Below are positions 4,666-40,950 of a stretch of 64,000 bases of DNA, piece after piece. Made by a program: the position numbers and the translations under genes. Every line of letters begins with the position of its first letter. The first letter of the stretch is position 1. The notes beneath the pieces are model-generated. The model searched no databases. It had not been told where the DNA came from and was given only the letters and a program-made list of their open reading frames with translations. The DNA is from Candidatus Brocadiaceae bacterium (lineage in GTDB: Bacteria > Planctomycetota > Brocadiia > SM23-32), in assembly GCA_012728835.1 (NCBI GenBank), contig JAAYEJ010000011.1:50990-114989 (forward strand), given 5' to 3'.

Positions 4666-7197
4666 TCATTCGCCGATCTCGATGGTGAAGCGCCGGGTGT
4701 CCGTCCCGACGCGTTCCGTGCCGCGCTCGATGACACGTTCGTTTCCCCAGACGAGGACTCCCGGATCGACCGTGCGCACTTGGCGGTCGATGGTGACCGT
4801 CACGACCACGTCCGCTCGGCCGGGAGCGTCGGGCGTGCCGCTCAGCCGGCCGGTGGCCGGGTCGATCGTGAGCCACGCCGGCCCCCGCTCCAGGGCGTAG
4901 ACCGGATGCTCGATGTCCCAGTAGCTCTTGGCCAGCCGGCCCTCGACCCGGTAGCACAGGTCGCCAAGGGAACGGGTCGCGGCGAGATCGCAGGTGTATT
5001 CCCGGCCCACGCGCGCCGTTGTGACGGGCGCGGTGTAGAGGACGGGCCGCGGCGCGGAGGCGTAGTCGGACGGGCCGCTGCGCTTCCCGTTCGCGTCGAC
5101 GGCCACCACGCGGTAGTAGGCCTTGTTGGCCGCCGGCAGGTCCACGCCCTCGCCGAGGACGGCCAGCTCGGTCGCCTCGGTCTCGGCGATGAAGTTGGCC
5201 GGGAAGGGCGAGGTCAGTTCCTTGCTCTCGCCCAGGTGGACGGGATACGGCTCATCGCTGACCGAGAAGCCCTTCTCGTCGCTGCCGTAGACGCGGTATC
5301 TCACCGGCGGGCGGCCGACCGGGTTCGGCTTCCAGGTCAGGACGCCGCGCCGCCCTTCCGCGTCGTAACCGAGTTGCACGTCCAGGGGATACGCGGGGCC
5401 GCGGGCGGTGAAGCTCCACGTCTCGCTCCAGGGCCCCCACACGCCGTGCTCGTCCTTCGCGCGGACCCGCCAGTAGTAGGTCTCGCCCGGCGTCAGCAAC
5501 CCGGGGGCGGGCAGCGTGAACTGCGCTCGGCCCCGGTCGCGCGTGCGCGAGATCAGCCGGTAGAAGTTCGTGGACAACGGCCAGCGGACGTCCAACCGGT
5601 CCGAAAGCTCGAAGTGGTAGTCGACGACGCGGTCGCCGTCGGGGTCCGGCGCGTCCTGCCACCGGAAGACGACGTCCGTGCCGTCCGTCTCGCCGCCCTC
5701 GGCCGGCGCGATGGGGGCCGGCGAGGCGCCCGGCGGACTCGAGGCCGAGCGCTCCACCCACTCGTGCGTGATGCGCACGGCGCGCTCGCCCGGCGTCTGG
5801 TCCGTGTAGACGAACGCGTTTGCACCGACGGCCATGCCGGGCAGCGCCAGGGGTGACATCTGCAGGTCGTTGACCACGGCCAGGCTCCTCAGCCGGGCGT
5901 CGCCGGACAGCGTGCAGCGGAGCCGGTAGCCGTAGCGCGGCGCCCCTCCCTGGGGCGGGAAGAAGGCGTTCAGGTCCGCGCCCTCCACGTCCTGCCAGGT
6001 CTCGCCGTCGAACGACAAGGCGAACCGCGCGCCGTTGCCCTCCGCCTCCAGGCGCCCGCCGACGAACACATAGGGCGCCTTCATCTCCCAGACGATCGTC
6101 CCGTCGCCTCCGGGGCCGGCCGACAGGCCGTTCGGCCCGGCCGCCACGTTGTCCGCAAGGGCCGCCCCGCGCCTCCACAGGTCGCCGGTCAGGTCGGGCC
6201 GGTACTCCCAGAGGCCGTTGCAGAACATGTAGGGGTAGAGGGGCTCGCGCAGGTAACGGTAGCGAAACGGCTCCCGCCGGCCCCATCGCCACACCAGCGC
6301 CTCGCCGGGGCGGAGCGTCATGTCCATGTTCGTCGCGCGTCGGTAGAGGCCGAACGCACGCTCGACCTCCACCTCGTGCGCGAAACAGGCGGCGAAGGAC
6401 TCGCGCAGGGCGCTGTGGTCGCCCAGCAGGATGCCGCTGCTGTGGGCGCGCTTGGCCAGGTCATGGTCGCGGGTGATCTCCGGCGCGTCCGCCACCGTCC
6501 GGTTGTCGCGCAGCAGGAACATCGTGTGCTGGTTCGCGTCCAGGTAGCGCCAGCCGCCGTCGAAAAACACCCGCGAGGTCGTGTGGCCCACGGTGGACCC
6601 GGACCCGTTGACCCGGAGTCCGGCCATGCTCAGCATCTGGGCGAAGTGCGAGGTGTTCGTGCCGCACATGTAGGCCGCGTAGATGTTGTAGATCCTCACG
6701 GGATCGGCGTCTTCGCCGCCCTCGGTCCCGCCGTGGTAGCGGTAACGGCACTCCTGGAACCAGATCGCCATGGCCTTCTCGCGGTCGGTCATGCCGGGCT
6801 CGACGGCGTTGTCAACGATCTCCTGCGGGGTGCGGAAGTTGTTGCGTCCGTTGGACAGCCAGGGGTTGACGACGTCGCCCGTGCCGACGTTCTCCATGCG
6901 CACGAGCCGGTTGGACTCCCAGGTCTGCTCCATCGCGCCTTCGCGGTTCATCCCCACGCTCAGGGGCGAGCGGCAGTTCGTGCCGTCCATCGTGCCGCCC
7001 TGGAGCACGGTGTACTCGTGCCGGCCGGCGCCGACGTCCTCCGAGTGCCGGCGGGGCACGTCGGAGGGATGGGCGTCCGAAGCCCACGGCTCCAGATGAG
7101 CCGCTCCGTCGTCTGCCTTCGCCCACATGCCCCGCCCTCCGCCGATGATCAGGAACGCAACGACCGCCGCCCTCAGAAGCCGCCGATAGGTCGCCAT
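4666..7197 (-). CDS. Secreted transglutaminase-like/FN3/Ig-like multidomain protein, paralog of 4..2484.
   Basis: Met 52 of ORF 4666..7350 (MATYRRLLRAAVVAFLIIGGG...) has a GGAGA RBS upstream, with ATG at 7197. The sequence is collinear with the 4..2484 product. The two genes are divergently arranged around the CarbopepD_reg gene. Confidence 0.6.
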   Translation of the reverse strand: MATYRRLLRAAVVAFLIIGGGRGMWAKADDGAAHLEPWASDAHPSDVPRRHSEDVGAGRHEYTVLQGGTMDGTNCRSPLSVGMNREGAMEQTWESNRLVRMENVGTGDVVNPWLSNGRNNFRTPQEIVDNAVEPGMTDREKAMAIWFQECRYRYHGGTEGGEDADPVRIYNIYAAYMCGTNTSHFAQMLSMAGLRVNGSGSTVGHTTSRVFFDGGWRYLDANQHTMFLLRDNRTVADAPEITRDHDLAKRAHSSGILLGDHSALRESFAACFAHEVEVERAFGLYRRATNMDMTLRPGEALVWRWGRREPFRYRYLREPLYPYMFCNGLWEYRPDLTGDLWRRGAALADNVAAGPNGLSAGPGGDGTIVWEMKAPYVFVGGRLEAEGNGARFALSFDGETWQDVEGADLNAFFPPQGGAPRYGYRLRCTLSGDARLRSLAVVNDLQMSPLALPGMAVGANAFVYTDQTPGERAVRITHEWVERSASSPPGASPAPIAPAEGGETDGTDVVFRWQDAPDPDGDRVVDYHFELSDRLDVRWPLSTNFYRLISRTRDRGRAQFTLPAPGLLTPGETYYWRVRAKDEHGVWGPWSETWSFTARGPAYPLDVQLGYDAEGRRGVLTWKPNPVGRPPVRYRVYGSDEKGFSVSDEPYPVHLGESKELTSPFPANFIAETEATELAVLGEGVDLPAANKAYYRVVAVDANGKRSGPSDYASAPRPVLYTAPVTTARVGREYTCDLAATRSLGDLCYRVEGRLAKSYWDIEHPVYALERGPAWLTIDPATGRLSGTPDAPGRADVVVTVTIDRQVRTVDPGVLVWGNERVIERGTERVGTDTRRFTIEIGE

Positions 7198-28905: not shown

Positions 28906-29004
28906 GGCGGCTCCCTGACCACAGGACGCTTGATGCCCTTCATCGTCGCGCCGGACGGTTAGGATACGACAAAGGCCGAGTCAAAGAACCGTGTGGCAGC
29001 CGCC

Positions 29005-32268
<3,264 letters not shown>

Positions 32269-32316
32269 GGCCGCGTCGAGTCCTTCACGAACAGCCGCGC
32301 GCAGGGTGGCGCACGG

Positions 32317-33363
32317 TCAACTGATCTCTTCGATGAACCGCCGCACGTGCGCGCTCACCTCGCCCGGCAGCGGCGCCGTCGGCATGAACTGGATCCCCGT
32401 CGCCGTGCCGTCCGCCGAACGGATCCCCTCCACCGTGCCGTCGTTGACGTTCTCCCACAGCAGTTCCGCCCGATCGCTTCCGCACACGCTCCGGCGTTCC
32501 AGCACGACGGTATGCCGCTGTCCGGTCACCAGTGTCGCGCCGTCGGCGAGACAGCGCACGGGGTAGTTGACCCCGTGATGGCCGCGCCTCAGGAACGTCA
32601 GCGCGCAGCCGAGCGCCATGCCCAGCGCCACCTGGCCGAGGCCCCACGCGAAGACGGGCACGCGGCCCAGAAGGCCCTTCAGTGCCTCCACAGCCGCCTC
32701 AGGCGGCCGCGCCAGGGCCGGCCCGTCGCTGACGAAGACCGCGGCCGGCCCCCCGCCCAGGACCTCGTCGGCACGGGCGTCCGCCGCGTGCAGCACGGGC
32801 GCACACACCTGCCGAAGCTGCGCCAGCTCCGAACGCCGGATGCCCAGGTCCAGCACGGCGGCCGCCGGCCCGTCGCCCTGCGCATCCCCGCACCCGCCGC
32901 CGGGCGCGCATGCCGGACGCTCCATTCCCGCCAGCGACCGGCGCAGGGCGTCCGCATCCTCCCCGGCCGGCGCGATGGCCGCGGCCATCTCGCCGTGTTC
33001 CCGCAGGTGGACGGCCAGGCCGCGCGTGTCGACGTCGGTCAGGCAGGGCACGCCATTGCGCTGCAGCAGGGCCGCGAAGTCCTCCTCGGCCCGCCAGTGG
33101 CTGCGGCACGGGCTGAGCACCTTGACCACCAGGCCCGCCGGCTGCACCCGCGGCGATTCGGCAAAGGTCTCCGCCGCCCCCACGTTGCCGACCTCCGGAT
33201 AGGTGAAGGCCAGCAGCAGACCGCGATACGCCGGGTCGGTGACCATCTCCTGGAAGCCGACGACCGCCGTGTTGGCGACCACCCAGCCCCGGGCCACCTT
33301 CGCCTCGCCGGCCAGTCGGCCGTTCAGACGGGTGCCGTCGGACAGCAGAATGTATCCGTCCAT
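32317..33363 (-). CDS. carA: Carbamoyl-phosphate synthase small subunit homolog with a catalytically dead glutaminase domain (Cys-His-Glu triad all substituted).
   Basis: The N-terminal CPSase_sm domain is conserved (GEVVFNTSMTGYQE-like VVANTAVVGFQEMVTDPAYRG). In the GATase region VFGICLGHQ is replaced by VFAWGLGQV (Cys to Gly), and FQGHPEASPGP is replaced by IQFMPTAPLPG (His to Met, Glu to Thr). Confidence 0.8.
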   Translation of the reverse strand: MDGYILLSDGTRLNGRLAGEAKVARGWVVANTAVVGFQEMVTDPAYRGLLLAFTYPEVGNVGAAETFAESPRVQPAGLVVKVLSPCRSHWRAEEDFAALLQRNGVPCLTDVDTRGLAVHLREHGEMAAAIAPAGEDADALRRSLAGMERPACAPGGGCGDAQGDGPAAAVLDLGIRRSELAQLRQVCAPVLHAADARADEVLGGGPAAVFVSDGPALARPPEAAVEALKGLLGRVPVFAWGLGQVALGMALGCALTFLRRGHHGVNYPVRCLADGATLVTGQRHTVVLERRSVCGSDRAELLWENVNDGTVEGIRSADGTATGIQFMPTAPLPGEVSAHVRRFIEEIS

Positions 33364-33426
33364 CTCTGTTCGCTCTCGGCTCTGTTGACGCTTCGGAAGG
33401 TCCCCACGCCGACCGCACGGTCGCCT

Positions 33427-34359
33427 TCAGACATACTCGACGGTCGCCGGCGGCTTCGGCGTCAGGTCGTACAGGCACCGGTTGACGCCCGGAAGGCTCG
33501 TGATGCGCGCGCAGATCCGTTCCAGGGTCTCCCAGGGCAGCCGAGTGGGCGTTGCCGTCCGCGCGTCCACGCTCTCGATGCAGCGGACGACGATGATCCG
33601 GCCGAACTCCCGCCTGCCGTCCCGGATGCCGGTGGCCTTGTCGTTCAGAAGGACGGCCAGGTACTGGAACGCCCCGCTGTCGGCCAGCTCCTCCTCCACG
33701 ACGGCCGTGGCCGCCCGCACGACATCCAGGCGCTCCTCGGTCACCTCGCCGACGATGCGCGCGGCCAGCGCCGGGCCGGGGAACGGTATGCGCTCGCTGA
33801 TCTCCGCCGGCAGGCCCACGAGCCGGGCCACCCGGCGCACGCCGTCCTTGCGCAGCGTCTTCAGGGGCTCCAGCACGCCGTAGCCGTAGGCGTCCTGAGG
33901 GTCGATCCCCACCTGCGACAGGATGTTGTGCTGGCGCTTGACGCCCGCGACGGTCTCCTCGATGTCCGTCAGGATCGTGCCGTGAATGAGGAACCGTGCG
34001 CCCGATTCCCGCACGATGCGCGAGAAGACGCGGGAGTAGAACGTCTCGGTGATCGCCCGGCGCTTCTCCTCCGGATCGGTCACCCCCCTCAGGGCGCCCA
34101 GGAACTCGGCGCGTGCGTCCACGAGCGTCACGGGGATGCCCATCCCGGCAAACACCGCCACGACGCGCTCCGGCTCCCCCTCGCGCATCAGCGCGCTGTC
34201 GATGAAGAACGTCTTGAGCCGCTCTCCCAGCGCCCGGTGACCGAGCACGGTGCAGACGGCGCTGTCGACGCCGCCGCTGAGGGCGTTCACGGCGATGCCG
34301 TCGCCCACGGTGTCACGGATCTCAGCGACCTGCTCGTCCACAAATGCCCGGTCGTCCAT
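33427..34359 (-). CDS. guaA: GMP synthase ATP-pyrophosphatase subunit (GuaA C-terminal domain only; no glutamine amidotransferase domain).
   Basis: ATG at 34359 (Met 41 of the track ORF; GGAGA RBS). PP-loop NALSGGVDSAV, and the GMP-synthase C-terminal dimerisation tail ...LTPKPPATVEYV (KPPATIEWE-like). It is 310 aa. Confidence 0.75.
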   Translation of the reverse strand: MDDRAFVDEQVAEIRDTVGDGIAVNALSGGVDSAVCTVLGHRALGERLKTFFIDSALMREGEPERVVAVFAGMGIPVTLVDARAEFLGALRGVTDPEEKRRAITETFYSRVFSRIVRESGARFLIHGTILTDIEETVAGVKRQHNILSQVGIDPQDAYGYGVLEPLKTLRKDGVRRVARLVGLPAEISERIPFPGPALAARIVGEVTEERLDVVRAATAVVEEELADSGAFQYLAVLLNDKATGIRDGRREFGRIIVVRCIESVDARTATPTRLPWETLERICARITSLPGVNRCLYDLTPKPPATVEYV

Positions 34360-34590
34360 CGCTGTCTCCTGCAGGTACACCGGCGGCCCAAGCGGATGTC
34401 TCACGGGTTCCGAGGGCGCGGCGATGGGCCCACGAGGTGCACCGCCCGCGCGGGAATTCACCCGGGGATGGTATCGCATTCGCCGCCGGGACGCAAGTCA
34501 CAGATCGGCATGGGATTGCGGCCCTCCGGCCGTCCGTGCCCGTCCGTGTGTGCGTTCGGGTTGCACGCCCGCCGGAGCACCGGCCGCCGC

Positions 34591-34619
34591 TTGACAGCAG
34601 GGCCCGTGGTGCGTAGAGT
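34591..34619 (+). promoter_or_regulatory. Sigma70-like promoter TTGACA-17-TAGAGT upstream of the 34681 membrane-protein gene, with two CGTCCGTG 10-mer units (34531-34550) positioned just upstream of the -35.
   Basis: Read from sequence: ttgaca at 34591-34596 and tagagt at 34614-34619, a 17-bp spacer, with GTG start 34681 after a GGAGG RBS. Confidence 0.45.
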
Positions 34620-34680
34620 CCTTGTTCCGTACCCCGGCATCCATCGAGGCCGCCCCCGGGGCCCCTGCGGAGGTCATCGC

Positions 34681-36603
34681 GTGAGCTGGCGCGCATTCGC
34701 GATCGGGCTGCTCGCCATCGTCGTCGTCTGCCTCGTCGAGGTCTACAGCGGCGTCGTCCACCCCTACGGAAGCATCACGGGCACCACCCTGCCCGCTGCG
34801 GCGGTGCTCGTGCTGGTCCTGCTGACCGTCGGCCTCAACCCCCTCATCGGCCTGGTGCGGCGTGGCTGGGCGTTCCGCCGGGCGGAGCTGATGGTCGTCT
34901 ACGCCATGGTCCTGTGCGCCTGCGTCGTGCCGGGCGACGGCTTGGGGGCGTTCTGGTACTCGGTGCTGGCGGGCGGCCCCTACATGGCGCGCCGGGCGGA
35001 CCTGCACTGGGAAGACACCGGCTCGCTGACGGTGATCAGCGAGGACCTGGTGCTGAGCAAGGACCCGAAGTCGGTCGCCGCCCTGCAGTACTTCGAAGGG
35101 ACCCGGGAGGGACGCGTCCCGTGGCGCATGTGGGTGCGCCCGATCGTCGCCTGGTCGGTCTTCTACCTGCCGATGTTCCTGGCCGTGCTGCTTCTGTGCG
35201 CGATCCTGAGGCGCCAGTGGGTGGAGGTGGAGCGCCTCATGTTCCCCCTGGCGCGCATTCCCCTGGAGTTCACCGAGGGGAGTGCGCGGGACGGCCTGCT
35301 GCCGGATTTGTTCGGCAACCGGGCGTTCCTCATGGGGCTGCTGGTGAGCGTCGGGTTCCGCTTCCTGCGCGCGGTGCCCCTGTTCTTCGACGCCGAACGC
35401 CGATGGGACCTGGCCCTGCCGCTGGCCGGCATCTTCTCAGGCACGCCGTTCGAGCTGATGAACTTCCACGACATCACGCTGAACTTCACGGCGATCGGGT
35501 TCGGATACCTCGTCCCGGCGGACGTCTCGCTGAGCGTGTGGTTCTTCTTCCTGTTCAGCCGCGTCGAACTGCGCGTCGCCCACAGCCTGAACATCACCAG
35601 CGCCCAGGGAGGCACCTACAGCAAGCTGATGAAGTGGCAGCAACTGGGCTCGAACCTCGTGTTCGTCATCGGCATGTTCTACGTCGCACGGCGCCATCTG
35701 TGGACGGTCCTGAAGAAGGCCCTCTTCCTCTCCCGCACAGACGAGGACGCCTCGGAACCCGTCAGCTACTTCTGGGCGTTCTGGGGCTTCCTGCTCGCCA
35801 TGGCCTTCTGTATCGGCTGGCACATGTACTACGACGTGCCGCTCTGGGTGGCCGCCTACGGCATGGCCCTGCTGTTCTGCTGGTTCCTGGCCTACGCCCG
35901 CGTGACGGCCCAGGGCGGGCTCTACATCGCGCGTCCGATGTGGTGGATCCAGGAGACCATCCACAGCACCACGGGCGCGCTCACCGGCAGCGGCGCCGTG
36001 CTGATGACGGCCCACGAGAACATGCTGATGTACGGCTCCAACATCATGCTCATGCCCGTCGCCATGGACGTCTTCCGCATCTCCGACGCCATCGGCCGGC
36101 GCAAGCGTCTGCTGGTCCCCGCCATCATGTGCGGATTCGTGGTGGCGATCGTCGTCACCTCGTACATGTTCCTGAAGATGGCCTACGGCGTCGGGGCCGT
36201 CAACTTCGCCTACTCCTGGGCGACCATGAACGTGCCCCGCTACGTCTTCGACTGGTCCCACGCGATCATCAAGCAGCCTCGCCAGCAGATGCACTTCTAC
36301 CCGGGCTCGTTCGCCTTCGGCTTCCTCCTGACCGGCTTCATCATGCTCATGCGGGGGCGCTTCTACTGGTGGCCCATCCATCCGATCGGCCTGCTGGCCT
36401 GCAACAGCTACGCGGCCCAGCGCATCTGGGTGCCCTTCTTCCTCGGCTGGCTGATCAAGACCCTCCTGATGAAGTTCTCCGGCGGCCAGAAACTGCGCAC
36501 CGTCCGCGTCTTCTTCATCGCCTACATCGTCAGCGAGATCACCCTCGGCGGCCTCTCGACCGCCGTGCGCATGATCTCCGGAGGAGCCGTCCCCGAGTTC
36601 TGA
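34681..36603 (+). CDS. Large polytopic membrane protein (640 aa, at least 12 predicted TM helices, Trp/Phe/Tyr-rich), unknown function.
   Basis: GTG 34681 lies 7 nt after GGAGG. It is the C-terminal part of the artefactual 2536-aa track ORF. Hydrophobic segments run throughout (AIGLLAIVVVCLVEVY, AAVLVLVLLTVGLNPLIGLV, FYLPMFLAVLLLCAIL, ...). Confidence 0.65.
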   Translation: MSWRAFAIGLLAIVVVCLVEVYSGVVHPYGSITGTTLPAAAVLVLVLLTVGLNPLIGLVRRGWAFRRAELMVVYAMVLCACVVPGDGLGAFWYSVLAGGPYMARRADLHWEDTGSLTVISEDLVLSKDPKSVAALQYFEGTREGRVPWRMWVRPIVAWSVFYLPMFLAVLLLCAILRRQWVEVERLMFPLARIPLEFTEGSARDGLLPDLFGNRAFLMGLLVSVGFRFLRAVPLFFDAERRWDLALPLAGIFSGTPFELMNFHDITLNFTAIGFGYLVPADVSLSVWFFFLFSRVELRVAHSLNITSAQGGTYSKLMKWQQLGSNLVFVIGMFYVARRHLWTVLKKALFLSRTDEDASEPVSYFWAFWGFLLAMAFCIGWHMYYDVPLWVAAYGMALLFCWFLAYARVTAQGGLYIARPMWWIQETIHSTTGALTGSGAVLMTAHENMLMYGSNIMLMPVAMDVFRISDAIGRRKRLLVPAIMCGFVVAIVVTSYMFLKMAYGVGAVNFAYSWATMNVPRYVFDWSHAIIKQPRQQMHFYPGSFAFGFLLTGFIMLMRGRFYWWPIHPIGLLACNSYAAQRIWVPFFLGWLIKTLLMKFSGGQKLRTVRVFFIAYIVSEITLGGLSTAVRMISGGAVPEF

Positions 36604-36706
36604 CGGCAGCGCCTGCGCTCCGGGCCGGACAGCCCCGTTCGGTTGACTCGCCCGCCCCGCACGCGGTACAAGGACGTTCGCACAGTCCTCTCGCTCGGAG
36701 CAGCCG

Positions 36707-37687
36707 ATGAGCCTGCCCATCAGCTTCATCGTGGACGACCCCGCCCCGCTGGTCAACGTCTACTGGTGGCACGTCGCCGCGCGGTCCGCCGACGGAACCG
36801 CCGTGCTCAAGTCCGGCGAGCCGGTCGTGCGCGACGTGCCCGTGGACTTCATCCGGCGCTTTGCCGACGTGGTCGAGCGGCACGGCCTGCGCGGCAAGTT
36901 CAGCGTCCTGCCCGTGCCCGCCGCACTCGGCCCCATCACCGAGGGCTGGCCCGGCTGTGACCGCCGGGGGCTGCAGGACTGGCTCTCCGTCGCCCGGGAA
37001 CGCATCGCCCCGCAGTTCGACATCACCCCCGAGATACTCACCCATGCCCGCGCCGTCGACCTCGACACGATGGACCCCCTGGACGAGAACGAGCGCGACT
37101 GGGCCTCCCACCAGACCCACGAAACGCTCACCCCCTACATCGCAAAGGCCCTGCAGATCCTCAAGGAAGCGGGCCTGGAGGCCACCGGGGTGACCTCGCC
37201 CTGGGACTTCGGACGCGAGGTCGAACCCGATTACCGCATCGCCATCCGCACGGCCATGAAGGAGGTCAACGGGCGCGATCGCGCCTGGTACTTCCTCCAC
37301 ACCGACACCCGCACGGTCGAGCCCCGCTCGGAGGTCGTCTGGCGCGACGGAGACGCATGGCTCGTCAGCCTCTGGTCGCGCTGCGACGACTACCTGTGGA
37401 ACACGATGGAGACGGCCCGCACCGACGATGCCTGCGTCCGCTCCGTCGCCGACCGGTTCCTGACGGACGACGGCGCCGGCGGCCGCCTGGCGGAGCTCCT
37501 GCAGGCCGGCGAACCGATCGTCTTCCACAGCCACTGGCAGAGCCTCTTCTCCAACGGCCGCGAAACCGGCCTGCGCATCCTCGACGAGGTCGGCCGCCGC
37601 ATCCGGCAGGCCTGGGGCGATCGGGTCACCTGGCTGAAGTGCAGCGACCTGGCCGCCCGGATTGCCGCCGGAAGCCCCCGCCGATAG
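36707..37687 (+). CDS. Hypothetical cytoplasmic protein (326 aa), possibly a divergent deacetylase/beta-alpha-barrel hydrolase fold.
   Basis: MSLPISFIVDDPAPLVNVYWWH ... ILTHAR ... GVTSPWDFG ... IVFHSHWQSL. It has no signal peptide. It shares the downstream context GATAGCCCCGG-CGTCCGTGCC with the following gene. Confidence 0.5.
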   Translation: MSLPISFIVDDPAPLVNVYWWHVAARSADGTAVLKSGEPVVRDVPVDFIRRFADVVERHGLRGKFSVLPVPAALGPITEGWPGCDRRGLQDWLSVARERIAPQFDITPEILTHARAVDLDTMDPLDENERDWASHQTHETLTPYIAKALQILKEAGLEATGVTSPWDFGREVEPDYRIAIRTAMKEVNGRDRAWYFLHTDTRTVEPRSEVVWRDGDAWLVSLWSRCDDYLWNTMETARTDDACVRSVADRFLTDDGAGGRLAELLQAGEPIVFHSHWQSLFSNGRETGLRILDEVGRRIRQAWGDRVTWLKCSDLAARIAAGSPRR

Positions 37688-37694
37688 CCCCGGC

Positions 37695-37834
37695 CGTCCG
37701 TGCCCGTCCGTGGCCGTCCGTGCCCGTCCGTGGCCGTCCGTGCCCGTCCGTAGCCGTCCGTGTGCGTCCGTGGCCGTCCGTGTGCGTCCGTGGCCGTCCG
37801 TGTGCGTCCGTGGCCGTCCGTGTGCGTCCGTGTG
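37695..37834 (+). repeat. Perfectly phased array of 14 tandem 10-bp units, CGTCCGTG plus 2 variable nt (cc/gc/tg/ag).
   Basis: It is read directly: cgtccgtgcc cgtccgtggc cgtccgtgcc cgtccgtggc cgtccgtgcc cgtccgtagc cgtccgtgtg cgtccgtggc cgtccgtgtg cgtccgtggc cgtccgtgtg cgtccgtggc cgtccgtgtg cgtccgtgtg. It begins 7 nt after the stop of the 36707 gene and ends ~37 nt before the -35 of the next promoter. Confidence 0.9.
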
Positions 37835-37870
37835 TGGCGGCGCCCCCGCCCGGCGGGCCGGCGGTTGTCA

Positions 37871-37899
37871 TTGACGGCCGGCCCCGCCGCCGGTAGATT
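37871..37899 (+). promoter_or_regulatory. Sigma70-like promoter TTGACG-17-TAGATT for the sialate O-acetylesterase gene.
   Basis: ttgacg at 37871-37876 and tagatt at 37894-37899, with ATG at 37941. Confidence 0.45.
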
Positions 37900-37940
37900 G
37901 CACGGCGGTCGGACCCGTACTCCCCAGGAGAGAATGCGCA

Positions 37941-39887
37941 ATGCGACTTCATGCGCTGTTCAGCGACAACATGGTCCTTCAGCGCGACGTCCCGGCACGC
38001 GTGTGGGGCTGCGACTCGCCCGGGCAGAAGGTTGCCGTCCGCGTCGGCAAGGCCACTGCCCGAGCGGTGGCCGGCCCGGACGGACGCTTCATGGCGCGGC
38101 TTCCGCGCCTGGCGGCCGGCGGACCGTTCACGATGGTCGTCGAGGGCTCGTCGAGCGTGACCGTGCGGAACGTCATGGTCGGGGAGGTGTGGCTCTGCTC
38201 CGGCCAGTCCAACATGCAGATGCGGGTCAGCGAGGCGAAGAACGCCGAGCGTGAGATCGCGCACGCCCGGCACCCGAATGTGCGCCTCTTCTCCGTGCCC
38301 ATAGCCGCCACGGTGGAGCCGGTGCTCGACGTGGACGCGTCGTGGCAGGTGTGCGCGCCCGAGACCGTCGCGTCCTTCAGCGCCGCCGCCTACTTCTTCG
38401 GGCGGGCGCTGCAGCGGAAGCTCGGCGTGCCCGTGGGGCTGATCCACAGTTCGCTCGGTGCCACGCGCATCGAGGCGTGGATGAGCCGCGAGGCACTCCT
38501 CGGCGACCCCGAGTGCGGGCGGGAAGTGGAGGAGTATGAGAAGAGCCTGCCCGACTTCGAGCGGCGGCTGGCCGAATACAGGGCCATCGTCGCCGCCGGC
38601 CCCGACAAGTACTACCCCGCCGACCCCGGCAACGTGGGCCACGGGCGCGGCTGGGCGGCGCCCGGCGCCGACTGCTCCGACTGGGGCGAGATGACGGCGC
38701 CCGGCTACTGGAACGCCCAGGGCATGGACTTCAGCGGCGTCCTCTGGTTCCGCAAGGAGGTGGAGATCCCCCGCAAGTGGGCCGGCCGCGACCTGCTGCT
38801 GGGCCTGGGCGCCCTGGACAAGACGGACACCACCTACTTCAACAACGTCAGGGTGGGCGGCATCGGCAAGGAGGACGACGACGCCTGGTGCCGCGACCGC
38901 GAGTACACCGTGCCGGCCGCGCTCGTCAAGCCCGGCCTCAACGTGATCGCCACACGCATCTACTCATGGGGTTTCGACGGCGGCTTCCGCGGCGGGTGGG
39001 ACAAGATGACGATCCGCCCCGCCGACGCGCCCCGGGCGCGCGGAATTTCGCTGGCCGGCACGTGGCGCTGCAAGGTAGAGCACAACTTCGGCAGGATCAC
39101 GGTCATGCGCGACCTGCCGCCCTGGGGGCCCGGCACCAGCAACTCGCCCTTCGCGCTCTTCAACGGCATGATCCGCCCGCTGATTCCCTATGGTATCCGA
39201 GGCGCCGTATGGCACCAGGGCGCCTCGAACCTGCGGCAGGCGTTCAAGTATCGGCGGCGGCTGGCCATGCTCATCCGCGACTGGCGCCGGCAGTGGCGCC
39301 GGCCCGACCTCTGGTTCAACGTAGTCCAGCAGGAGAACTACGGCCCGCTCGACCGCTTCCCGGTCGAGAGCGCGTACGCCGAACTGCGCGAGTCGCAGCT
39401 CAGGGCTCTGACGATCCCGCGCGTGTCGGTGACGGTGGCCATCGACATCGGGGGCGTCAACGAGGTGCATCCGCTCAACAAGCAGGAACTCGGGCGGCGC
39501 ATCGCGCTGGCGCTCCTGGGCACGACGTACGGCCGCAAGCGGCCGGCGCACTCGGGGCCCATCTACAGGTCGTACCGGCGCGTGGGCGGCACGATGCGGC
39601 TGAGCTTCGACCACGTGGACGGCGGCCTCGTGGCGAAGCGAGGCAAGCTGAAGGGCTTCGCCATCGCCGGCCCCGACCGCAGGTTCGTGTGGGCACAGGC
39701 CAGGATCGTGGGACGGTCGGTGGTGGTGTGGAGCGAGGACGTGCCGAAGCCGGCGGCCGTGCGCTACGGCTGGGGCGCCAACACGGACGGCAACCTCTAC
39801 AACAGGGCGGGCCTGCCGACCTGGCCCTTCCGGACGGACAGATGGCCCGGCCTCACCCGGAAGCGCCGCCGTCTCAACAACGGATAG
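37941..39887 (+). CDS. Sialate O-acetylesterase family protein (SASA/DUF303 SGNH-type carbohydrate esterase).
   Basis: 648 aa. MRLHALFSDNMVLQRD..., catalytic GEVWLCSGQSNM motif (SGNH Ser), then GATRIEAW, and a C-terminal beta-sandwich region. Confidence 0.75.
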   Translation: MRLHALFSDNMVLQRDVPARVWGCDSPGQKVAVRVGKATARAVAGPDGRFMARLPRLAAGGPFTMVVEGSSSVTVRNVMVGEVWLCSGQSNMQMRVSEAKNAEREIAHARHPNVRLFSVPIAATVEPVLDVDASWQVCAPETVASFSAAAYFFGRALQRKLGVPVGLIHSSLGATRIEAWMSREALLGDPECGREVEEYEKSLPDFERRLAEYRAIVAAGPDKYYPADPGNVGHGRGWAAPGADCSDWGEMTAPGYWNAQGMDFSGVLWFRKEVEIPRKWAGRDLLLGLGALDKTDTTYFNNVRVGGIGKEDDDAWCRDREYTVPAALVKPGLNVIATRIYSWGFDGGFRGGWDKMTIRPADAPRARGISLAGTWRCKVEHNFGRITVMRDLPPWGPGTSNSPFALFNGMIRPLIPYGIRGAVWHQGASNLRQAFKYRRRLAMLIRDWRRQWRRPDLWFNVVQQENYGPLDRFPVESAYAELRESQLRALTIPRVSVTVAIDIGGVNEVHPLNKQELGRRIALALLGTTYGRKRPAHSGPIYRSYRRVGGTMRLSFDHVDGGLVAKRGKLKGFAIAGPDRRFVWAQARIVGRSVVVWSEDVPKPAAVRYGWGANTDGNLYNRAGLPTWPFRTDRWPGLTRKRRRLNNG

Positions 39888-39909
39888 CCCCGGGCGTCCG
39901 TGCCCGGGG
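39888..39909. terminator. Bidirectional stem-loop CCCCGGGC-gtccgt-GCCCGGGG between convergent genes. The stem embeds another CGTCCGTGCC unit.
   Basis: It lies immediately after the TAG stop at 39885-39887 and 19 nt before the stop of the convergent hydrolase gene (39928). Confidence 0.5.
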
Positions 39910-39927
39910 GATGCCCGGGCGGCGCGG

Positions 39928-40950
39928 TCACGGCCGCAGCCAGCGGGCGATCCAGCGATAGGCGAACTCGCGCACGTCGTCCACCGTGTCGTGCCCGTCG
40001 CCGTGAGTCAGCGTGCAGAAGCACTCCGGGCGGCCCAGCAGGGCGTAGGCCCGCTGCCCGCGCACGTAACACTGGAAGTTGGCGTCCGCGTAGGGGTTAT
40101 GGGCGTCGTTGAACGGCTCCAGCAGCAGCAGCGGCCGGGGCGCGCACAGGGCGACCATGTCCTGGTAGTCGTAGAGCATCGTCCCGTGCGCCTCGCGCAT
40201 GTGCTCGATCCACCGCGGACTGGACCGCGTGGCCGGATGGCCCGAGACGAGCCGATAGACGTTGGTCAGGTTGGGGCTGACGCCCGTCGAGGGCACGGCG
40301 ACCGCGATGCGCTCGTCGAAGGCCGCCAGGAAGATGGCCATGCGGCCGCCCAAAGAGTTGCCGATGGTGCCGAACCCGCCCGGAGCGACGAAGGGCATCG
40401 TCTCCAGGGCGTCCAGCAGGCGGCGGCCTTCCCAGAGCCGCCGCCCGTCCAGCGACCACTCGGGATACTCGTCGTGGAGCCTCGCCATGGAGGCCATGTA
40501 GCGGGTGCGGATATCGCCCTCCGACAGGTCGCGCCCGCCCGTCAGCCGCTCGCCGAACTCGTAGATATCCGGCGCCACGGTGACGAAGCCCCTCCGCGCC
40601 AGATCGATCGCGTAGGCCCGGCGCGGCCGTTCGGTCGGGTTCAGAACGTTGTACTTGCCGTGCACGGTGTCGGTGCCATGCCAGACGACGACCGCCGGCG
40701 CCGGGGTCCGCTCATCGACCCCGTCCGGCAGGACGACCACGGCCGGCGCCCACTCGTCGGGCATGACGCGGACGCGGATCTTCCGGTGCCGGAGCCCGTA
40801 GTCCTCGTATTCCTCCGCGGGCTCCCAGGCAGGCTCGACGGCCACGTCCGGCGGCGTCCCCATCGAGGACATCACGCGGGCACGGATCCGCTCGCGGATC
40901 AAGGGCCACTCGTCGGGCCGGGTATCCTGCAACACCACATCGCGAAACAT
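39928..40950 (-). CDS. Alpha/beta-hydrolase (dienelactone hydrolase / acetyl-esterase-like).
   Basis: Met 79 of the track ORF (MFRDVVLQD; ATG 40950, GGAGCAGGAG upstream). Nucleophile elbow GNSLGG and an alpha/beta fold. It is 340 aa. Confidence 0.7.
   Translation of the reverse strand: MFRDVVLQDTRPDEWPLIRERIRARVMSSMGTPPDVAVEPAWEPAEEYEDYGLRHRKIRVRVMPDEWAPAVVVLPDGVDERTPAPAVVVWHGTDTVHGKYNVLNPTERPRRAYAIDLARRGFVTVAPDIYEFGERLTGGRDLSEGDIRTRYMASMARLHDEYPEWSLDGRRLWEGRRLLDALETMPFVAPGGFGTIGNSLGGRMAIFLAAFDERIAVAVPSTGVSPNLTNVYRLVSGHPATRSSPRWIEHMREAHGTMLYDYQDMVALCAPRPLLLLEPFNDAHNPYADANFQCYVRGQRAYALLGRPECFCTLTHGDGHDTVDDVREFAYRWIARWLRP

Follow-up and report, generated by a model that had tools for sequence, protein, structure and literature searches.

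What is a row of fourteen octamers, set in exact 10-bp phase, doing between two genes of a planctomycete? The question is raised by a 64,000-nucleotide stretch of contig JAAYEJ010000011.1 (at its full length called the window here), taken from a metagenome-assembled Planctomycetota genome labelled 'Candidatus Brocadiaceae bacterium'. Its plus strand contains a tandem array of 140 bp (37695..37834, the main array), which consists of 14 units of 10 bp, each an octamer, CGTCCGTG or a close variant, with a 2-nt spacer. We found that this array is a real, recently expanded and copy-number-polymorphic tandem repeat. Sequence comparison suggests, with a probability that we put at about 0.55, that it is an over-expanded solo member of a family of phased arrays extending across phyla, the units of which are likely sites for an oligomeric nucleic-acid-binding protein.

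Inspection of the sequence and Tandem Repeats Finder (TRF) both confirmed the fourteen exactly phased units described in a first-pass annotation of this DNA. The octamer is CGTCCGTG in 13 units and CGTCCGTA in one (37745-37752, a G>A exchange), and the period is exactly 10 bp. TRF gave the best score to a period of 20 bp (96% matches, score 233; score 198 for period 10), and the array opens with three copies of (CGTCCGTGCC CGTCCGTGGC), after which (CGTCCGTGTG CGTCCGTGGC) occurs four times. The first block (37695-37754) comprises 3 x 20 bp with the spacers CC/GC, the second (37755-37834) 4 x 20 bp with the spacers TG/GC. Two such homogeneous blocks are the signature of a recent duplication of 20-bp double units, and head-to-tail, near-identical units with a higher-order structure are what characterizes a variable number tandem repeat (VNTR) or minisatellite. 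All copies had been thought to lie on one face of the DNA. This holds only approximately: by simple arithmetic, a 10.0-bp period at 10.5 bp per turn drifts by about 17 degrees per unit and about 240 degrees over the 14 units.

The main array starts 7 bp 3' of the stop codon of a gene for a 326-aa protein without a Pfam family (36707..37687, plus strand). Homologues of this protein have the same length, so that the array is no part of the gene; since gene ends are fixed by homologues, a coding repeat of the flanking genes was ruled out. The identical 326-aa protein was found on contigs of four other assemblies, where the flanks are identical to those in the window and the array has 14, 12, 14 and 12 units; a fifth contig breaks off inside the array. 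In the 12-unit alleles one TG/GC double unit is missing, and one of these alleles differs by two spacer substitutions as well. The check for copy-number variation proposed with the annotation was therefore positive (12 versus 14 units between assemblies). The closest other homologues of the protein (82-69% identity) lie in different gene neighborhoods and have no array downstream. Copy number thus varies between conserved flanks, and the array is absent from the orthologous position, though synteny differs there too. Because of the 12- and 14-unit alleles and the array-free orthologues, we regard the array as young and expanded by slippage. A metagenome scan for more copy-number alleles with a flank pattern returned only single-unit chance matches and a few look-alike hairpins, which is a weak negative, since the known Joint Genome Institute (JGI) contig Ga0123328_1002940 (L002), with the pattern present twice, was missed and the collection is not exhaustive.

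The same core recurs far beyond this genome. When one genome of each species was scanned for the pattern CGTCCGTG-N2 in three consecutive units, at least 120 stretches of genome contigs matched. The matches listed include Acidobacteriota (Thermoanaerobaculia), Lentisphaerota (Victivallales), Hydrogenedentota, Planctomycetota, Verrucomicrobiota, Armatimonadota, Nitrospirota (Nitrospiraceae), Sumerlaeota, Myxococcota, Chloroflexota and some actinomycetes, at least ten phyla overall. Among the matches listed, several metagenome-assembled genomes (MAGs) have three or four array loci each, and arrays comprise 3-19 units with a mode of 4, the window's 14 being the second largest. Arrays of this type also occur in long-read chromosomes and isolate genomes; on plasmids (PLSDB) the element is essentially absent. 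In the retrieved loci (906 kb) the period of the core is 10 in 145 arrays, 9 in one and 11 in none, and any other 8-mer forms only two period-10 arrays in the same 906 kb. Spacers are non-uniform within 56 of 125 arrays, with TC, TT, CC and CT making up 78%, so they are pyrimidine-rich on the GTCCGTG strand. In viral contigs nine stretches carry the core pattern, compared with 3, 0 and 0 for three composition-matched control octamers, and the arrays of the controls have uniform spacers, as pure slippage predicts. The unit of the family is the core CGTCCGTG/CACGGACG at an exact period of 10 bp with spacers that are pyrimidine-rich on the GTCCGTG strand; the unit of the window array is the same in all eight core bases and in the period. 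In the literature, searched by sequence and by family names, neither the repeats nor the repeat-encoded linker presented below were found described, and the only result was the link between PF05635 and Avd; our best reading is that the phased-array family has been undescribed so far.

About two thirds of the arrays have no reverse-complementary partner; for 41 of 122 arrays such units were found no more than 250 bp away. In about 33 cases CACGGAC units come first, followed by a loop of 10-60 nt and GTCCGTG units, and in two (L055 and L091) the order is opposite. Between ordinary genes, these pairs form discrete array-loop-array hairpin elements of 110-150 bp, which often begin just 3' of stop codons and are followed by U-containing tails. 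Folding of two hairpin relatives yielded -76 and -105 kcal/mol (z = -8.9 and -12.8). The spacers of the two arms pair in register no better than shuffled ones, with 85 complementary positions versus 89 ± 4.7. A contig of Pseudomonadota (L107:4032-7930) carries four hairpin elements within 4 kb, one per intergenic gap and one inside a gene for a four-helix-bundle protein; they share only the arrays, and two have a near-identical loop. No target-site duplication was visible at the edges of hairpin elements.

All-against-all comparison of the open reading frames (ORFs) within 120 loci revealed a single recurrent neighbor tied to the arrays, a gene for a 'four helix bundle suffix domain-containing protein', which at six loci has the array inside or directly upstream. 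The protein combines an N-terminal TIGR02436/PF05635 domain with a C-terminal TIGR04258 domain, and the hairpin element is translated as the linker between the two. Since 10 nt is not a multiple of 3, the arms are read through all three frames; the CACGGAC arm encodes the peptide HG..RT.TD. and the GTCCGTG arm VR..PC.SV. The family consensus was recovered independently from gene linkers. Among the best 120 homologues of one such protein, the first signature is present in 97, the second in 89 and both in 72. Four genes fetched by protein id all contain the internal hairpin (4/4), and 25-170 bp ahead of their starts lie one to four CACGGAC units; if the earlier loci are included, the upstream array was found in all eight complete genes, usually in the CACGGAC sense and beside the Shine-Dalgarno sequence. 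In the conserved domain, identity among the eight genes is only 46% at four-fold degenerate sites, yet several exact linker heptamers are kept in six of them, which argues that the nucleotides, and not the peptide, are constrained or continually homogenized.

An AlphaFold model of the protein (pLDDT 81) has three helices, a disordered segment encoded by the arrays (residues 130-163) and the suffix as fourth helix. Among solved structures, 2RLD of the S23 family, with chains up to E, is the nearest. PF05635 and Avd (accessory variability determinant), which belongs to diversity-generating retroelements, are regarded as homologues (PMC10053308). The family is large, with 735 clusters at E <= 1e-30 among representatives at 50% identity. 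At two loci (L142:4662-13857 and L145:6245-13728) the gene is part of a Type I restriction-modification operon, where it is flanked by hsdS and hsdR and stop codons overlap with start codons, and at L143:7070-10678 it directly follows an MmeI-type enzyme. Neither a reverse transcriptase nor a template/variable repeat pair was found near the gene.

Some members of the protein family deserve separate mention. In P0262, P0270 and P0272 the suffix domain is out of frame right after the repeat-encoded linker, as gain or loss of a 10-nt unit would give; phase variation, pseudogenization or sequencing error could account for this. Distant subfamilies (P0299, P0325, P0312, P0254, P0290 and P0389) have other short linker repeats (SDRSD..., ST.ST...), suggesting that the linker is repeat-prone in general and the units are subfamily-specific. 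At one locus (L113:2010-2086), the array ahead of a four-helix-bundle-suffix gene has a tRNA-Ala gene some 100 bp further upstream, a typical integration-site context that was seen only once; across the arrays there is no association with tRNAs.

Around the dispersed arrays, further repeats were observed. The arrays at positions 57-94 and 5761-5788 of one Verrucomicrobia contig (L033) and at 36-63 of a viral contig (L132) have identical left and right flanks, the array being part of a longer dispersed repeat. Conserved flanks, including the GC-rich palindromes GCCGCG...CGCGGC and CCGCCGCG.TAGCGGCG, were also found within one Lentisphaerae MAG (L022, L031, L099) and within another (L054, L084), which suggests composite elements specific to each genome. 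Family arrays in L091 (~6420-6470), L045, L049 and L116 (2751-2820) have different short tandem repeats beside them, among them (GGTGAGGA)4 and units of 12 bp, and these intergenic regions seem repeat-prone. The match on a contig labelled Metamycoplasmataceae (L021, GC 0.49) falls into a long (CCGT)n / CGTCCGTGTC microsatellite and is probably a contaminant or a simple-sequence locus and no family member.

In the window, the main array belongs to a cluster of three genes on the plus strand. The first (34681..36603) encodes a membrane protein with domain matches to DUF6785 and DUF6784, the second the 326-aa protein, and the third (37941..39887) a carbohydrate esterase of the sialate O-acetylesterase (SASA) family (PF03629, E = 9e-16), with the Shine-Dalgarno sequence AGGAGAG preceding its ATG at 37941. 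As annotated before, the array lies upstream of a predicted sigma-70-like promoter of the esterase gene, TTGACG-17-TAGATT (37871..37899, plus strand); 38 bp separate its last exact unit from the -35 hexamer, and it spans about -72 to -211 relative to the inferred transcription start. Likewise, the annotated pair of units (34531-34548) precedes the predicted promoter TTGACA-17-TAGAGT of the DUF6785/DUF6784 gene (34591..34619, plus strand) at a distance of 42 bp. These two promoters are the only sigma-70-like sites in 34300-40100, with 0.2 expected from shuffles. The mini-array (34521..34560, plus strand) contains exact units at 34531-34538 and 34541-34548, followed by TGTG and the degenerate unit CGTTCGGG. 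When the main array is collapsed to two units, 27 of 28 bases over repeat and edges are identical between both sites (CCGGCCGTCCGTGCCCGTCCGTGTGTG) and the -35/-10 hexamers are in register; the mini-array looks like a collapsed 2-unit form of the main array.

A third site follows the esterase gene, where the TAG stop and the sequence CCCCGGG-CGTCCGTG-CCCGGGG occupy 39885..39910 of the plus strand, between convergent esterase genes. The stem-loop (39889-39910, -21.5 kcal/mol) has one unit (39895) as its loop, so that the unit described as lying inside a terminator hairpin does lie in a hairpin; unlike an intrinsic terminator, the hairpin has no T-run. No terminator-like site was found in the region, and the main array is unstructured. 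The identical context noted at the ends of genes 36707-37687 and 37941-39887 was recovered as TAGCCCCGG[C/G]CGTCCGTGCCCG, with 21 of 22 bases shared (compared at the left edge of the array, 37685-37706). Hairpins of the type CCCCGG-N-CGTCCGTG-CCCGGGG also turned up in the unrelated metagenome contigs L147, L165 and L172, where the search pattern forced most of the match. Within the cluster, a 24-bp tandem repeat (2.3 copies, 35999-36054) lies inside the DUF6785 membrane-protein gene. A 2536-aa open frame (28993-36603, plus strand) runs antisense through carB, carA and a GMP-synthase-like gene before it merges with the real DUF6785 gene; this frame, an artefact of high GC content, calls for caution in ORF-based gene calling here.

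Single octamers elsewhere in the window are a different matter. Outside the array, CGTCCGTG occurs 13 times versus 8.3 ± 2.7 expected, and its 7-mer core 24 times versus 20 ± 4.6 in the window. At least seven of the 13 copies (3942, 5673, 24392, 39782, 52034, 58725 and 59379) lie within ORFs that have a coding signature in the GC content of third codon positions (GC3), which contradicts the claim that the 8-mer recurs only in intergenic DNA; isolated octamers in the window occur at chance frequency. The two CGTCCGTGAG 10-mers (16215 and 28063), listed earlier as family members, are isolated single units without further similarity and were taken as chance occurrences. Only three sites are related to one another, namely the main array, the mini-array and the loop unit at 39895, one in each intergenic region of the three-gene cluster. 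The suggestion of a dispersed element resembling repetitive extragenic palindromic (REP) sequences accordingly fails for the single 8-mers of the window, and it is supported by the phased arrays of the core, which are dispersed across many phyla and include hairpin elements.

Several known systems resemble the arrays in part. With bacterial VNTRs and minisatellites, such as the mycobacterial interspersed repetitive unit loci (MIRU-VNTR) and the promoter-proximal repeats of contingency loci, the main array shares head-to-tail copies, higher-order units, copy-number differences between populations, absence in related species and a place between genes close to a promoter; it differs in that core and phase are not lineage-specific and are found across phyla and inside a conserved gene. 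The classical on/off mechanism of contingency loci is not applicable, because the array, from 7 bp behind a stop codon to 38 bp short of the -35 hexamer, lies neither between -35 and -10 nor in an ORF. REP sequences and their REPIN doublets with REP-associated tyrosine transposases (RAYTs), as well as miniature inverted-repeat transposable elements (MITEs; Correia, enterobacterial repetitive intergenic consensus [ERIC]), are likewise short intergenic dispersed elements with hairpin doublets, local clusters and discrete boundaries that occur several times per genome. The array family differs from them by phased 7-8-nt cores with free spacers in place of one long palindrome, by a core common to many phyla, whereas REP sequences are species-specific, and by an Avd-like four-helix bundle as the only associated gene. 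The window array itself is non-palindromic, the family has no GTAG (GT[AG]G) head, neither RAYTs nor other transposases were found among the neighbors in 120 loci, and the terminal inverted repeats and target-site duplications of a MITE are both absent from the window array, while hairpin relatives have inverted arrays without visible duplication.

Phased operators (MraZ boxes, the 7+3+7 heptads of CtsR, the decamer or 11-mer repeats of OmpR, PhoB, TorR and ArcA) also have a 7-8-bp core per approximate helical turn with spacers of fixed length and free sequence, comparable to typical family arrays of 3-5 units. The family differs by the absence of a consistent promoter position or cognate regulator, by up to 19 units, by its inverted hairpin form and by its occurrence in coding sequence. 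The many copies of a GGA-containing motif (CACGGACG compared with CANGGANG, minus strand) recall the sponge RNAs CsrB and RsmZ, from which the arrays differ in strict 10-nt spacing, motifs that are not in loops, the absence of a promoter or terminator among the sites found, of an orientation bias and of an Rfam match. Avd is a pentameric nucleic-acid-binding barrel, and S23p proteins are encoded in intervening sequences of 23S rRNA that have inverted repeats at their ends. The array-bearing gene belongs to the same four-helix-bundle family (PF05635; PMC10053308); it differs from Avd and S23p by its place in restriction-modification operons, by the lack of a nearby reverse transcriptase or template/variable repeat pair and by the repeat-encoded insertion between helices 3 and 4, which is specific to the suffix subfamily. 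CRISPR repeats, iterons, DNA uptake sequences and attC sites were considered for the array and rejected, as were arrays of sigma-54 or extracytoplasmic function (ECF) sigma factor promoters, the spacing of which does not fit.

Could the window array be a neutral minisatellite? A functionless array would then have grown by slippage out of a CCGTCCGT direct repeat that GC-rich intergenic DNA contained by chance, and the likeness across phyla would be coincidence or convergence. The homogeneous 20-bp blocks, the copy-number differences and the absence in relatives agree with this, the unit holds an internal CCGT CCGT repeat (reported by TRF in a row with period 4), and control 8-mers form arrays in viral contigs too. 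Direct-only arrays, moreover, show no preference for a divergent, convergent or co-directional context or for a strand (11, 12, 15 and 12 arrays by context and orientation). We nevertheless regard this explanation as doubtful, since the window array fits a consensus that can be derived independently from gene linkers, since a second site with another spacer pattern and a third solo unit share the flanks of the array within 5.4 kb, and since family arrays, unlike the controls, keep core and spacing while their spacers vary, the core providing nearly all period-10 arrays within the retrieved loci. A local operator or upstream activating sequence, as proposed by the first-pass annotation, would instead have a host transcription factor bind the phased units and co-regulate the DUF6785, 326-aa and SASA genes, the unit in the hairpin loop marking the end of the cluster. 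Phased direct repeats are typical of OmpR/PhoB-, CtsR- and MraZ-type operators. Cooperative binding or DNA bending, which the annotation read from the geometry of the array, is a conjecture. Support for the proposal is local: within the window, only this cluster carries the motif, in each of its three intergenic regions, the remaining 58 kb being free of it; a strong sigma-70-like -35 hexamer follows the end of either array at 38-42 bp; and the upstream regions align in register. Beyond the window it finds no support, as the orthologous genes in relatives have no array and promoter-like sites near the arrays of 120 related loci are rare and point toward the array as often as away from it, with no fixed position. 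The neighboring genes at these loci share no function, only generic kinases, response regulators and transporters recurring apart from the four-helix-bundle gene. With no regulator gene adjacent, with fourteen sites that drift by 240 degrees, abnormal for an operator, and with local duplication, as in L107, L020 and L033, as another explanation for the clustering, we consider an operator unlikely.

An element acting as RNA has less in its favor. The array would be transcribed as 3' UTR or intercistronic GUCCGUG repeats, or antisense as CACGGACG repeats, and serve as sponge, pairing partner, RNase III substrate or termination signal. The very stable stems of hairpin relatives, often located after stop codons and with U-containing tails, are consistent with this, as are the upstream arrays of the four-helix-bundle gene, mostly in CACGGAC sense beside the Shine-Dalgarno sequence; CACGGACG also fits the published CsrA consensus, CANGGANG. 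The window array, on the other hand, has no complementary arm, and its plus strand is less structured than shuffled sequence (z = +2.4), the minus strand being weakly structured (z = -3.9). No terminator-like site lies in the region, no Rfam 15 covariance model matched the arrays in the window or in 25 related loci, direct-only arrays lack the orientation bias that a co-transcribed element should show, and there is no evident promoter or terminator for an antisense small RNA. This explanation is therefore quite improbable. Finally, the repeat might have been collapsed or expanded by assembly and be absent in this form from the organism. Its 140 bp come close to a short-read length, one contig ends inside it and the lengths disagree (12 versus 14). 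In five independent assemblies from different samples, however, the array does not differ in position, flanks or block structure, point differences distinguish one of the shorter alleles, and the array type occurs in long-read chromosomes and isolate genomes, which makes an artefact very improbable indeed.

The preferred reading, membership in a family of protein-binding phased arrays, has to be held against several observations that weigh against it. The window array has no inverted partner in the window, and its spacers CC, GC and TG alternate regularly, all three being found in the family as minor types. No four-helix-bundle-suffix gene was found in the 64-kb window and no solo arrays in the 10-kb flanks of the gene in gene-bearing genomes, so that the link between gene and dispersed arrays is suggestive only. 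The raw number of genome matches is not compelling alone, as a crude extrapolation allows tens of matches per average octamer. The case for the family therefore draws on a core and a spacing that are fixed while the spacers are free, on several loci per genome, on the hairpin form and on the link to the gene. The short homogeneous arrays of Streptomyces may have arisen by independent slippage, in which case part of the at least 120 loci would be convergent. The lack of complementarity between arm spacers argues against pure selection for a hairpin, without proving recognition by a protein. The copy-number alleles come from short-read assemblies, and for one of the two shorter alleles a collapse during assembly could have produced the apparent difference between 12 and 14 units.

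In spite of these points, we favor membership in the phased-array family. Because core and spacing are kept, spacers vary and cores persist at synonymous saturation, the most probable role of the units is to provide phased sites at which an oligomeric protein recognizes the nucleic acid. The foremost candidate for the binder would be the four-helix-bundle-suffix protein itself; its solved relative has chains up to E, and 3-5 units per arm would suit a pentamer. The family takes three forms: inverted arrays that encode the disordered linker of the four-helix-bundle-suffix protein together with a direct array just upstream of the gene, discrete 110-150-bp array-loop-array hairpins between genes, and direct-only arrays like that of the window. 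Solo arrays may be copies of, or extra sites for, the four-helix-bundle-suffix system. In the window, a 2-unit seed like that at 34531 gave rise to the main array by slippage of 20-bp double units. The array may act on the esterase promoter, in which case occupancy or geometry would determine the modulation. Near-neutral over-expansion at this locus is at least as likely as an operator role, because other genomes show no such pattern, orthologues are free of arrays and the length is both extreme and variable.

A bolder version, which we offer tentatively, takes the CACGGACG/CGTCCGTG arrays as cognate sites of the candidate Avd-like four-helix-bundle-suffix protein. Cassettes of gene and arrays in restriction-modification operons would have spread horizontally across at least ten phyla and seeded the dispersed hairpin and direct arrays of host genomes, in a so far unrecognized partnership comparable in kind to that of RAYTs and REP sequences. 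Gain or loss of a 10-nt unit shifts the frame of the linker, so that the repeats could also switch the gene and the translationally coupled downstream hsdR on and off.

Taken alone, the window array is an ordinary hypervariable repeat, a possible strain marker that might tune one esterase promoter. The wider meaning lies in a motif with fixed helical phasing that is conserved across phyla in two settings, the coding region of a disordered linker and dispersed intergenic elements, which implies selection on the nucleic acid itself or continual homogenization. For the Avd-like/23S intervening sequence four-helix-bundle family, large and of unknown function, the arrays would provide a first concrete candidate ligand and a link to restriction-modification operons.

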